Shown: positions 21,633-24,643 of the stretch, piece after piece
How positions within the stretch are numbered: position 1 is the stretch's first letter
How the letters are laid out: each line of letters starts with the position of its first letter
DNA from: Minisyncoccia bacterium
GTDB taxonomy: Bacteria; Patescibacteriota; Minisyncoccia; Phycocordibacterales; Phycocordibacteraceae
DNA: 64,000 nt
Direction of reading: 5' to 3'
Assembly (NCBI GenBank): GCA_050011835.1
Contig: JBEKII010000002.1
Coordinates: forward strand, 76,173-140,172
Translations under genes and position numbers: made by a program
The notes under the pieces: model-generated
The model's database searches: none
What the model was told of the DNA's origin: nothing
Seen by the model: only the letters and a program-made list of their open reading frames with translations

Positions 21633-22715
21633 TCATGAATGCATTTTGATCCAAAAATCATTCCTCAACCTTTCACTAACCCGGTACACATCAGCATGAG
21701 ACAATATCCCTAAATATGAATTGAGTGACGCCTCCGCCCGTTCTTTTGATACCGCACCTCGTCTATAATCAGAAATGATACGTCCGAGTTTTCGATACAT
21801 CCGCTTTTCAGTTTTCTTCCGCAACAGTCGGAAATGCGGAAAGGCGATGTATCCCAGAAAATCGACGCCCCTGCTGTATCGCCGTATCTCGACCTTGTCG
21901 GGGTGCAACTCAAGCTTGAGCCGTTCACGCAAGAAATCCCGCATTGGTTGCAGAAATGTTTTCAGCTTTTCCGAATCGTTGCTCACAATCAAAAAGTCGT
22001 CAGTATAGCGAACATAGTGTTTAATATATAGGTCATGCTTCACAAACTGATCAAATTCGTTCAGATAGATATTGGCAAAAAGCTGGCTCGTGAGGTTGCC
22101 AATTGGCAATCCTTTTCTCGGTGTATTTTTACTCTCTCTCTCTCTCTCTCTCTCTCTCTCTCGACAGCCCGCCGCCTCGTAACTTTCGATAATTTCTCTC
22201 ATAAGCCAGCAGGTGTCGGGATCGGTGATGCGTCTTTCGAGAATGCTGAGCAGAACATCGTGGTTAATGCTGTCGAAGAATTTCCGTACATCGCACTTAA
22301 GCGCATAGCACGATTGCGTACCGTTGTGGCTCACAGCGCGGAGCATCTGCGTGAGTATTTCAACGCCTTTATGCGTTCCTTTGCCTATGCGACACGAAAA
22401 GGAGTTGGGAATATACGTCGGCTCAAAGATTGGATTCAGGGCCGCAAACATGGCGTGATGCAGCACTCGATCGCGCACGTTCGCTTTGTATATATGCCGA
22501 AGCTTGGGATCCTGGATATAAAAGTCAGTATATGGCCCGTGCCGATAGCGCTTGGTTTGTAAATCGCGATGCAGGTCAAAAATGTTATGTTCAAGCTCCT
22601 TCTCGAATGCGAGCACGTCTTTCTTCATCCGCTTCCCGCGTTTGAATTCATCCCACGCGTGGAAGAGCGCCTCAGGAGAGACGATTCTTTCGAAAACACG
22701 GTCATATTTTTTCAT
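21633..22715 (-). CDS. Diversity-generating retroelement (DGR) reverse transcriptase
   Basis: RT domain with YTDD (YxDD) and the DGR-specific motif-4 variant IGNLTSQ (IGxxxSQ, not group II QGxxxSP). N-terminal ALFHAWDEFKRGKR block. Start taken as MKKYDRV; an upstream Met at 22754 is the alternative. Confidence 0.8.
   Translation of the reverse strand: MKKYDRVFERIVSPEALFHAWDEFKRGKRMKKDVLAFEKELEHNIFDLHRDLQTKRYRHGPYTDFYIQDPKLRHIYKANVRDRVLHHAMFAALNPIFEPTYIPNSFSCRIGKGTHKGVEILTQMLRAVSHNGTQSCYALKCDVRKFFDSINHDVLLSILERRITDPDTCWLMREIIESYEAAGCRERERERERESKNTPRKGLPIGNLTSQLFANIYLNEFDQFVKHDLYIKHYVRYTDDFLIVSNDSEKLKTFLQPMRDFLRERLKLELHPDKVEIRRYSRGVDFLGYIAFPHFRLLRKKTEKRMYRKLGRIISDYRRGAVSKERAEASLNSYLGILSHADVYRVSERLRNDFWIKMHS
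22132..22162. repeat. (CT)15 dinucleotide microsatellite inside the RT ORF; encodes (RE)5 on the minus strand
   Basis: 31 nt of uninterrupted CT repeat read directly from the sequence. Confidence 0.9.
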
Positions 22716-22717
22716 GT

Positions 22718-23068
22718 ATGAATGATGCCGATATTCCGATTCTGAAGAAAGCATATGATTTGTATCTCACCTTTCACACGTATCGGCGTGTCGTGCCCAA
22801 AGCCGAGCGATTCACCCTCTACGAACGTTGTGAGAACGCAATTCTCGATATGGTCGAAGCGATTCTTGAAGCCGGATACTCGAAGAGCGCACAGAAGATG
22901 ACAGTGCTCGAACGTGCAAGCGTGAAGCTCAATATCATTCGCTTTTTCATCCGCCTTTTGAAGGAAACTCGTTCCATCGATACGAAGAAATATGTGAAGC
23001 TCCAAGAAATGATTGATGAGATCGGTAGAATGCTCGGCGGATGGATACGATCGACGGATTCTCGATAA
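22718..23068 (+). CDS. avd: DGR accessory variability determinant (Avd; four-helix-bundle family)
   Basis: 116 aa. C-terminus EIGRMLGGWIRS resembles the Bordetella phage bAvd EVGRILGSWIAR. Placed adjacent to the RT. Confidence 0.75.
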   Translation: MNDADIPILKKAYDLYLTFHTYRRVVPKAERFTLYERCENAILDMVEAILEAGYSKSAQKMTVLERASVKLNIIRFFIRLLKETRSIDTKKYVKLQEMIDEIGRMLGGWIRSTDSR

Positions 23069-23109
23069 CAAACAGCGTCCGTCAGGACGCTGTTTGGGGT
23101 GAGAAGCGA

Positions 23110-23239
23110 CTTCGGAAGGAACGCCGATGCCGAACCATAGTTGTCGTTCGCATTGTCGATCCAGTTCGTGTTGAACTTGAGCCTGCCGTCGTTGAAGTTG
23201 AAGATCGGCGCGTTCGAGAACTCGGACTCGTCGCTCGGC
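23110..23239 (-). repeat. DGR template repeat (TR); sense strand is minus
   Basis: ~130 nt matching the 3' end of the target gene. Rich in AAC codons. Mismatches to the VR are mostly at TR adenines. Flanked by the perfect hairpin aaacagcgtcc-gtca-ggacgctgttt (23075-23105). Confidence 0.7.
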
Positions 23240-23675
23240 GTTTGCCCTCGCCCGTCCGTGGCACCGGAGCTTGAGACCGTCTCTCGCTCCTGAACTTTAT
23301 CCGGCGACACCGTATTAGCGGTTCGCCTTGGGCGAAGGCAAGCAGTATCTCCTCACCAAGGGCACGCTTGTGCAAATCGTGATCGGCACAACTCTGGCCC
23401 GGTTTCTCGAAGAGAAAGAGTTCGGCGACGGCCGTCCGTGGAGAACCGTGCATGAGCCTAGACTCGCTCATGAATATAGCAGATGCGGCGGAATCGCGGA
23501 ATTTGACTATTTATACCAGACGTGCTATCCTCTAGCCAGATTAAAAGTCCTTTCCAATCCAAGAATCACTGGGTATGAGACGAGCTTTTTGCGGCTTATT
23601 GCTAGGCCGTAGCAAGCTCGTCTCATACAGAGCCGCACGTCGGGGCGAATCCGGCAAAAAAGGAGAGCTAACGTT

Positions 23676-24582
23676 ATGAAAACGCTTACTCAAACTCAAG
23701 AACCAGCAACCGAAGGGCAGATCAAATCGATTGCGCGCGTAGGTTCGGACGCTGCCGACAAAGCCGTTCGCGATTATTTCGCAGCAAACCCAACGACCAA
23801 AGAAAATGCACAGCGCGGACATGCGAGCGGCGACCAACTCGCCGACGTAATCCGCACCGCCGTACAGTCCTGGCTCGCTGACACCGTCGTCTCCGACAAG
23901 TACAAGGACGAAGAAGTGGAATCCAGCTACGGCTATCTTTCCGGGTATATCAAGCCGAAAGATAGTGCCGACCAGCTCAAGATCCTGCACGAATACTTTC
24001 CGGAGCTGCCAAAGGGCGATTTGTCGCCGCTCGGCATCGCTGCAGAAAATGCAGAGGGTACTTTCATCATTCCGCACTGGTCGCTCGTTGCCAAAACCTA
24101 TCCTGAAGCGGTACAGAAAATCATCGTTGCACTCACCAAACAGCGTGGCGGCAAATTCCACAACTACCGCGATGGCGAGATTGACGCAGATCACATTCGC
24201 GAAACGACGCAAAAGATTGCGGCCATGCAACAGCTGCGTGACGCACAGAAGAGCGATCTGCTTCAGGTTCCTGCACAGTTCGGCATTCGCCATCGCGGAC
24301 GCTCAGTCCGCAGGGCACGCGAAATCTTCGCCGTCAACGAGTTCGGTCTCGGTGCCTGGGAAATCGGCTGTATGCTCCTCACCACCCATCCCGAGCGCCT
24401 CAACGACTACAACGACCTCTGGATCGATTGTGCTGGCGATGAGTTCAAGCCGAGCGACGAGTCCGAGTTCTCGCGCGCGCCGGTCTTCAGCTTCCGCGGC
24501 GGCAAGCCCATGTTCGGCGCTGGCGAGGTCGGCATTGCCAACGACGACTATGGCTCCGCATCGGCGTTCCTCCCGCAGTGAT
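23676..24582 (+). CDS. DGR target protein with a C-terminal variable region (C-type-lectin-like VR)
   Basis: 301 aa. Strong RBS aaggagag. The C-terminus ...SDESEFSRAPVFSFRGGKPMFGAGEVGIANDDYGSASAFLPQ matches the TR-encoded ...SDESEFSNAPIFNFNDGRLKFNTNWIDNANDNYGSASAFLPK. Confidence 0.75.
24450..24579 (+). repeat. DGR variable repeat (VR)
   Basis: Aligns to the TR over ~130 nt with 28 mismatches, 19 of them at TR adenines. Followed by the inverted repeat ctcgagtcc...ggctcgag (24591-24637). Confidence 0.7.
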
Positions 24583-24643
24583 TCTTGTATCTCGAGTCCT
24601 TGGCTCTTTTGTGTATTCTTGATCCTTGGGCTCGAGAAATTTT

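Follow-up and report, generated by a model that had tools for sequence, protein, structure and literature searches.

A chromosomal diversity-generating retroelement of Minisyncoccia with a reverse transcriptase probably gated by an intragenic (AG)n tract

How the mutagenesis carried out by cellular diversity-generating retroelements (DGRs) is restrained is an open question, the sole control reported so far being transcriptional. The locus described here lies within a 64,000-nucleotide stretch of a Minisyncoccia bacterium genome (contig JBEKII010000002.1, positions 76,173 to 140,172; referred to here as the window) and comprises a reverse transcriptase (RT) gene, an avd gene, a template repeat (TR) and a target gene that ends in a variable repeat (VR) (Table 1). 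We conclude with considerable confidence that this is a chromosomal DGR of the Minisyncoccia (Patescibacteria/Candidate Phyla Radiation, CPR) with the architecture known as B3, in which RT supply is probably gated by an (AG)n tract inside the RT gene itself. All components of the DGR are present and intact, and the differences between its TR and VR are adenine-biased and directional.

The open reading frame (ORF) of the RT on the minus strand spans 21633-22754 (373 aa). The 360-aa form that begins at the ATG at 22713-22715, which the initial annotation had put forward together with the IGNLTSQ and YTDD motifs, is also the form given by both public gene calls (JGI and NCBI protein P0121). RTs of the DGR clade carry an [I/L/V]GxxxSQ motif 4 and a YxDD motif, and both are found here. 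The top match among solved structures is the Bordetella enzyme bRT (PDB 8ub7; E-value 3.6e-47), with RTs of the group II and retron type at about 1e-19, and motif 4 of the window RT, GLPIGNLTSQLFAN (IGNLTSQLFAN), aligns with GIPIGSLTSQLFAN (IGSLTSQLFAN) of bRT. The neighboring 116-aa ORF, initially described as Avd-like, indeed exceeds the cut-offs of both NF033474 and PF22296. GC content is 47% in the RT gene and 52-56% in its flanks.

Conceivably, the locus might not be a DGR at all, and might instead combine an RT of a group II intron or retron with an ordinary duplication that resembles TR and VR. The protein names assigned by NCBI and JGI are generic ('reverse transcriptase/maturase', 'retron-type'), and the top NCBIfam match is the group II maturase model. 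However, this match reaches 148 bits, half of the cut-off of 300, bRT is by far the best structural relative, and a DGR-specific Avd adjoins the RT. Furthermore, an Rfam scan of 21300-24900 returned only the tRNA above threshold and no intron or retron RNA. Identity as a group II intron or retron RT was rejected on these grounds. The second half of the proposal fares no better, for an ordinary duplication is ruled out by mismatches that are biased toward adenines and directional, and the probability that the locus is something other than a DGR is negligible.

The two repeats form inverted arms that are 79% complementary over 131 nt. They differ at 27 positions, 18 of which fall at TR adenines; in other words, 18/33 TR adenines are mismatched as against 9/98 other positions (Fisher p=2.3e-7). 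An adenine bias had been noted at the outset for a 130-nt repeat with 19 of 28 mismatches at adenines, and it is the bias that stands and the figures that are revised. Since VR adenines carry only two of the mismatches, the direction of transfer from TR to VR is clear. The TR shares its reading frame with the target, and codon positions 1 and 2 hold 32 of its 33 adenines. In all relatives the ends of the repeats differ, the VR ending in CCGCAGTGA and the TR in CCGAAGTC.

The target gene found no match in Pfam, NCBIfam or PDB sequence searches, and only a fold search was informative. In an AlphaFold 2 model (predicted local distance difference test score, pLDDT, 80.8) the C-terminus adopts a C-type-lectin fold, as initially proposed, and the VR lies at the C-terminal edge of this modeled fold. 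The target's family has more than 2,000 members in Patescibacteria, with lengths of about 296 aa. When 112 homologs are aligned, the columns that vary in the C-terminal tail are those at which the TR has adenines, and in the last 45 residues of the family invariant and free columns alternate, as expected of a VR. Thus, a bRT-like RT, an Avd that passes the DGR-specific model and a VR-like C-terminus of the target together define a DGR with a C-type-lectin-fold target. A 15-nt inverted match flanks the target (23557-23571 and 24576-24590) and was judged to be at chance level (about 0.4 expected by our own estimate).

For comparison we collected 80 genome loci encoding target homologs, of which 37 possess an RT within the flanks examined. 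The remaining 43 show no RT or Avd within these flanks (up to 8 kb; for example L005-L008, L012 and L015), and their target homologs may be orphan or remote targets. Two tandem target paralogs occur at each of L021, L045 and L064.

The layout of the element, originally regarded as atypical, proved to be the rule in its group. The start codons of avd (ATG at 22718-22720) and RT are divergent and separated by exactly 2 nt, and the TR lies beyond avd on the RT strand, both as first described, so that the minus strand reads TR (23239 to 23109), avd antisense (23068 to 22718) and RT (22715 to 21633). This is the B3 architecture, TR-(avd)-RT with avd on the reverse strand, which accounts for 90% of CPR DGRs and is nearly absent elsewhere (Wu et al. 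2018, PMC5758913). A divergent, abutting avd/RT pair is present in 36/36 related genome loci with an Avd match, and wherever a TR was found in these loci it lies on the RT strand with avd inverted between TR and RT. As first described, therefore, the locus is an ordinary member of the well-catalogued CPR B3 class. In common with CPR B3 DGRs (PMC5758913) and with clade 2 of Roux et al. 2021 (PMC8144416), it has an avd inverted between TR and RT, a Patescibacteria host, a chromosomal location, a target without a recognizable N-terminal or transmembrane domain, and several non-adenine substitutions. It differs in that its TR-(avd)-RT module is placed upstream of the target and inverted, a subtype shared by 10 of the 37 RT-bearing genome loci; in the other 27 the module is downstream of the target on the same strand.

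Unexpectedly, the RT gene contains a perfect dinucleotide repeat. The tract occupies a loop of roughly 20 residues that is missing from bRT, just N-terminal of motif 4. No other AG/CT tract of at least five units exists in the window, and the only dinucleotide tracts of at least eight units across 1.02 Mb of related genome loci, three in number, are (GA)n at this same site of the RT; a perfect repeat inside an ORF is, therefore, unusual for these genomes. At the tract position (RE)3-6 is encoded in about 25 of the 120 best RT homologs. Tract length differs between close relatives, being 31 nt in the window, 25 nt in L084, where the RT is intact, and 23 nt in L083. In the last of these, the closest relative, the RT is split exactly at the (AG)11 tract into two halves that are otherwise intact and lie in different frames.

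A metagenome scan for (GA)9 or longer within 6-36 nt of a PIGNLT-coding motif returned at least 120 loci; all metagenome counts given below refer to the matches listed. With the genomes, the fixed tract site is represented by L083, L084, L056, L077, L079 and L086-L205. The divergent avd/RT pair recurs in 74/74 tract-bearing loci with enough upstream sequence. Placement of both RT halves, and thus evaluation of the frame, was possible in 105 loci: the frame is kept in 17 and lost in 88, by +1 in 44 of them and by +2 in the other 44 (16 in frame and 85 out of frame once near-duplicates are removed). Each out-of-frame allele is one repeat unit away from an in-frame one. The rest of the gene is preserved, with the N-terminal half open up to the tract in 86/88 out-of-frame loci and the C-terminal half full length in 74/76. 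By comparison, 29/33 RTs of the same clade that lack the tract are intact. The in-frame share of 16% falls short of the one-third anticipated under neutral slippage (p=1e-4); this deficit may reflect selection for the OFF state, or a bias of the search pattern toward long perfect tracts. Eleven out-of-frame loci retain both TR and VR, and these show mostly clean adenine-only patterns with 7-25 mismatches (for example 17/17, 20/20 and 16/16), which implies that their DGRs worked recently. No in-frame locus in the metagenome set had both TR and VR, so that cleanliness was scored for out-of-frame loci only.

Repeat number thus varies in a manner that toggles the frame and leaves the remainder of the gene intact, as in simple sequence repeat (SSR) contingency loci. 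These comparisons suggest that the tract is a slipped-strand ON/OFF switch of the RT, and that the window carries an ON allele. Since the halves are intact, the frame is not maintained and the cassettes have been active recently, the observations agree with a reversible slipped-strand switch and not with decay. In a related DGR RT (L054, 2480-3300), the stretch between motifs 3 and 4 is missing through an internal deletion, and this copy, in contrast to the out-of-frame alleles with a tract, is genuinely degenerate. On balance we lean toward the view that many Patescibacteria DGRs, forming a large sub-lineage, control their own mutator through an (AG)n contingency locus, seated in a permissive loop of the RT and operated by one-unit slippage.

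The same alleles could be read in another way if RNA polymerase or the ribosome were to slip on the tract, such that out-of-frame genes would still give some full-length RT at low levels, for example through a -2/+1 slip beside the UAA that is often found after the tract. Such recoding would accommodate the intactness of both halves in about 97% of out-of-frame loci as well as the shortage of in-frame alleles; moreover, the tract contains no stop codon in any frame, and a stop in the N-terminal frame directly follows the tract in 11/55 out-of-frame loci of the first batch. Mostly, however, this stop lies 15-118 nt beyond the tract, and the length differences between close relatives are present in the DNA itself. 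The two out-of-frame states are also equally common, and no single directional recoding event rescues both offsets. Transcriptional slippage on dinucleotide repeats is not known as an established bacterial mechanism. We consider recoding unlikely.

A more prosaic proposal is that the out-of-frame alleles are assembly or sequencing errors and that the tract is merely a tolerated low-complexity insertion encoding (RE)n. Polymerase chain reaction (PCR) stutter at dinucleotide repeats is real, in-frame (RE)3-6 proteins are common among RT homologs, and a number of contigs (L002, L085, L126 and L129) break off at or within the tract. Yet the tracts, at 18-51 nt, are shorter than reads, and a consensus assembly follows the majority allele. 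An error rate of 84% is implausible, the more so as 88% of tract-less RTs from the same kinds of assembly are intact, and a constraint on the peptide would permit synonymous CGN and GAA codons, yet the DNA repeat is perfect and unique in more than 1 Mb. An artefact of this kind is very improbable. Regarding the contig ends, of the two Logan contigs (k=31), L002 begins 2 nt inside the tract and L085 with the first base of the tract; a branch in the de Bruijn graph between alleles of differing unit number would yield such starts. A contig end lies within 25 nt of the tract in 6/120 contigs.

Certain points count against a slipped-strand switch or temper it. It is derived from comparison between lineages and from consensus sequences, and the search pattern, having selected long perfect tracts, may under-sample stabilized ON alleles. 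An exact look-up of ten predicted tract-length variants of the window RT found none of them. Among near-isogenic pairs, only two had flank identity of at least 90%, and in both the tract lengths were equal.

Comparison with the CT repeat of oipA in Helicobacter pylori (PMC10564699) places the tract among familiar contingency loci. In both, a perfect dinucleotide tract sits inside an ORF, its unit number differs and toggles the frame, and the remainder of the ORF is intact in OFF alleles. The differences are that the gated gene here is a mutator enzyme, the DGR RT, and not a surface or restriction-modification gene; that the tract lies mid-gene in a permissive loop and not near the 5' end; and that variation is known here from comparison between relatives. 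As a clade-wide feature the (AG)n tract has strong comparative support, and what it would imply for the switching of DGRs is apparently undescribed. We found no literature linking DGRs with phase variation, SSRs or frameshifts, and no description of an intragenic (AG)n tract, a TR-side terminator hairpin or a CTTGA-rich VR element, in a coverage that did not include Paul et al. 2017.

Table 1 Features of the DGR locus and its surroundings, with positions numbered within the window.
Feature	Position	Strand	Details
tRNA-Met (CAT), initiator type	21422..21493	+	C1:A72 mismatch; ARAGORN; Rfam tRNA 55.8 bits
att-like copy 1	21470-21508	+	tRNA-fMet 3' end plus about 15-18 nt downstream
Perfect 40-nt palindrome	21579..21618		between tRNA-fMet and RT 3' end; I4, 100% complementary; -34.6 kcal/mol, z -7.7
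DGR RT	21633..22715	-	360 aa; motif 4 GLPIGNLTSQLFAN; YTDD; PF00078; identical to NCBI/JGI protein P0121
Perfect (GA)15G tract	22131..22161	-	31 nt, inside RT ORF; encodes (RE)5; in frame
avd	22718..23068	+	116 aa; PF22296 bAvd 71 bits (cut-off 40); NF033474 DivGenRetAVD 92 bits (cut-off 80)
TR-side hairpin	23069..23096		12-bp stem directly after avd stop; fold z -4.7/-5.5
TR	23109..23239	- (RT strand)	131 nt; 33 adenines, 7 AAC codons; ends in clade-conserved CCGAAGTCnCTCC motif
Long hairpin	23573..23628		26-nt arms; I2; -41.5 kcal/mol, z -6.4
Target gene	23676..24581	+	301 aa; C-terminal C-type-lectin fold (model); no Pfam/PDB sequence match
VR	24449..24579	+	last 131 nt of target; end is first base of stop codon
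VR-side stem-loop	24582..24640	+	CTTGA-rich, imperfect, directly after target stop; stem 24590-24637
Terminator-like hairpin	24643..24671	+	intrinsic type, 12 pairs and T-run; predicted to end target transcript
Large serine recombinase	24705-26267	-	520 aa; Pfam Resolvase/Recombinase/Zn_ribbon_recom; last ~20 codons extend into island's flank
att-like copy 2	24733..24766 (left half) + 32567-32581 (right half)	+	degenerate copy of tRNA-fMet 3' end, CCAGTTCGATTATGGACCCGGCAACA
Strain-variable island	24767..32566		7.8 kb; absent from L001
TPR/Fic segment	32813-34585		TPR protein 194 aa; Fic-domain protein 390 aa with C-terminal winged-helix domain

Beyond its genes, the locus holds several structured elements. 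Hairpins were initially placed on the flanks of TR (23075-23105) and VR (24591-24637); both exist, at 23069-23096 and 24590-24637, and together with the hairpin at 24643-24671 they fold far better than shuffled sequence. The TR-side hairpin begins 12 nt 3' of the TR end on the TR strand and has the A-run, stem and T-run of a bidirectional terminator. It is kept in 33/34 relatives despite their differing sequences, with compensatory changes in 10/11 consensus pairs. The hairpin is likely the 3' end of the TR RNA, and we infer that it may terminate a short TR RNA on one strand and the avd mRNA on the other; TR and RT would in that case be transcribed separately. Set against this, scans for sigma-70 promoters and terminators gave counts no higher than in shuffled sequence, and the transcript ends are inferred only.

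The VR-side element is conserved in a different manner. Every relative (L003-L084) has the element, in which the CTTG and CTTTTG blocks do not vary and the outer stem covaries to some extent, and its sequence is conserved across targets that are only 45-55% identical. Since it is present after the VR and absent after the TR, it is a natural candidate for the mark of the recipient, and by analogy with the stem-loop downstream of the initiation of mutagenic homing (IMH) site in BPP-1 it is likely a target-recognition element. A further long hairpin (23573-23628), found also in L083, lies 48 nt upstream of the target start in the 436-nt intergenic region from which TR and target diverge. The palindrome that separates the tRNA from the RT gene probably acts as a bidirectional terminator; weak, sub-threshold Rfam small RNA matches at the same position were regarded as spurious.

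The DGR of Bordetella phage BPP-1 (mtd-VR, avd, TR, brt; PDB 8ub7) is among the closest known systems. Its RT is homologous, with the same motif 4, as is its Avd; transfer from TR to VR is likewise specific to adenines, a C-type-lectin fold carries the VR at its C-terminal end, and a stem-loop follows the VR. Conversely, all BPP-1 genes are on one strand in the order target-avd-TR-RT, and its target is a tail fibre. The post-VR stem-loop of the window is longer, not GC-rich and conserved in sequence, and the RT of the window contains the loop insertion of roughly 20 aa that carries the repeat. In BPP-1, a spacer RNA of roughly 140 nt between TR and brt primes complementary DNA (cDNA) synthesis. 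The position of this spacer is occupied here by the terminator-like hairpin and avd antisense.

In the mechanism that we propose, TR would be transcribed from the minus strand as a short RNA ending at the hairpin 23069-23096, which would also terminate avd from the other side. The RT-Avd complex would copy this RNA into cDNA, misincorporating opposite adenines, and the cDNA would replace the VR, which the CTTGA-rich stem-loop after the stop codon would distinguish from TR. RT supply would probably be gated by the hypermutable (AG)n tract, with gain or loss of one unit shifting the frame. The in-frame allele of the window would represent the ON state, from which most relatives are one unit away.

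Several observations suggest that the copy in the window strain may no longer be active. Of the 27 TR/VR mismatches, nine fall outside the adenines, a higher number than most relatives show, and five of these nine are synonymous third-position changes. Relatives have mostly adenine-only mismatches (for example 19/19, 18/18, 23/23 and 28/28), and in L084 all 25 core mismatches are at adenines. Furthermore, the VR is identical in four assemblies of the strain, these being consensus sequences in which minor variants are hidden; ongoing adenine-restricted diversification was accordingly not seen, and the initial description of the target as hypervariable is not supported for this strain. Comparison with the TRs of L083 and L084 suggests that changes have occurred on both the TR and the VR sides of the window copy. 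The last full retrohoming in this strain seems to lie well in the past, and the DGR is probably quiescent here.

An alternative is a quiescent or decaying relic, in which every part can still be read, retrohoming stopped long ago and TR and VR drift independently. The non-adenine mismatch rate (9/98, about 9%), the synonymous third-position changes in the VR and the invariance of the VR would agree with a relic, as would the TR of L084, by which at least one of the differences (position 56) seems to have arisen by mutation in the window TR, and the below-average activity of the Patescibacteria DGR clade (Roux et al. 2021, PMC8144416). Nevertheless, the RT, Avd and target ORFs are intact, the SSR is in frame and a strong bias toward adenines persists (p=2e-7). 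Minor variants are masked in consensus assemblies, and CPR DGRs in general often carry several non-adenine substitutions (Wu et al. 2018, PMC5758913), so that those of the window are not decisive. We regard a relic as possible but rather doubtful.

The surroundings of the DGR raise the further matter of its mobility. The initial annotation placed the cassette beside tRNA-Met and an integrase island and considered it potential mobile cargo; the adjacency is real, and the role as cargo of that island is not. A sibling contig (L001, JGI 3300038429) is 99.99% identical over 13676-24766 and then resumes at 32567, which identifies 24767-32566 as a strain-variable insertion. Only this segment shows presence and absence, a defined junction and its own recombinase, and since L001 has the DGR without the island, the DGR as cargo of the serine-recombinase island was rejected. 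The island junctions share the core GCAACA[A/C]GGT, the insertion having occurred exactly in the core GCAACA|CGGT of att-like copy 2. Besides the recombinase, the island encodes a 479-aa unknown protein, a 606-aa protein with a peptidoglycan-binding domain and further ORFs.

Att-like copy 2 is both the point of island insertion and the right border of a 3.2-kb DGR cassette, and reads CCAGTTCGATTATGGACCCGGCAACACGGTTGTGA against CCGGTTCGATTCCGGCCCCCGCAACACGGTTGTGA in the tRNA copy. A third copy lies at 34591-34633 and a weak one at 35856-35870; copies 2 and 3, which differ hardly at all between themselves but have diverged from the tRNA, enclose the TPR/Fic segment (2 kb). With its repeated copies of the tRNA end, the region downstream of the tRNA looks like a tandem att-bounded array of which the DGR cassette is the first segment.

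It follows to ask whether the cassette itself is, or was, an integrated mobile islet at tRNA-fMet, a unit of this array possibly mobilized by serine recombinases using the same core site. The att-like direct copies bracket the cassette, and the 7.8-kb island has inserted exactly in the core of one of them. In about 20 related DGR loci, moreover, the 3' end of the RT gene has a 437-aa serine recombinase beside or close to it (directly or within a few kb downstream in L009, L126, L106, L004, L013, L083 and about 15 others). Its family members are 48-73% identical to that of L083 and 24% identical to the 520-aa enzyme of the window; tRNA genes are sometimes nearby and in L083 adjoin the recombinase. 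Conversely, the 3.2-kb cassette contains no recombinase, an empty tRNA-fMet site was not encountered in any genome, the difference in GC content is mild, and no att repeats were found around the recombinase-linked DGR in L083 or L009. Long direct repeats are also not a normal product of serine recombinases. DGRs are known on tRNA-integrated integrative and conjugative elements (ICEs) in Bacteroides (bioRxiv 10.1101/2024.11.15.621889), and those at tRNA-Lys resemble the present arrangement in having a DGR beside a tRNA gene, tRNA-end direct repeats and site-specific recombinases nearby; the window cassette differs in lacking conjugation genes and an internal recombinase, in the independence of the neighboring island and in the serine type of the recombinases. 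Mobility of the cassette is plausible from these comparisons, and an integrated islet is a tenable explanation to which we give somewhat less than even weight. Elsewhere in the window, ARAGORN also called a tRNA with anticodon TAT as tRNA-Ile (55693-55767) and a tmRNA (53255-53676, tag AKSPYFGKVGDIAFAYATARG).

Should the RT indeed be gated by its (AG)n tract, targeted hypermutation would proceed in heritable, reversible bursts, and a favorable VR variant would be locked in when a lineage turns the RT off. Such gating would account for the predominance of OFF alleles in nature despite continued selection on both RT halves, and also for the low-activity scores of CPR DGRs in metagenome surveys. 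With 84% of the listed tract-bearing loci out of frame, surveys that require an intact RT ORF would miss most elements of this kind, and would therefore under-count CPR DGRs and misjudge their activity. By placing a targeted mutator under the control of a stochastic mutation hotspot, a slipped-strand switch built into the RT would act as an evolvability device of second order.

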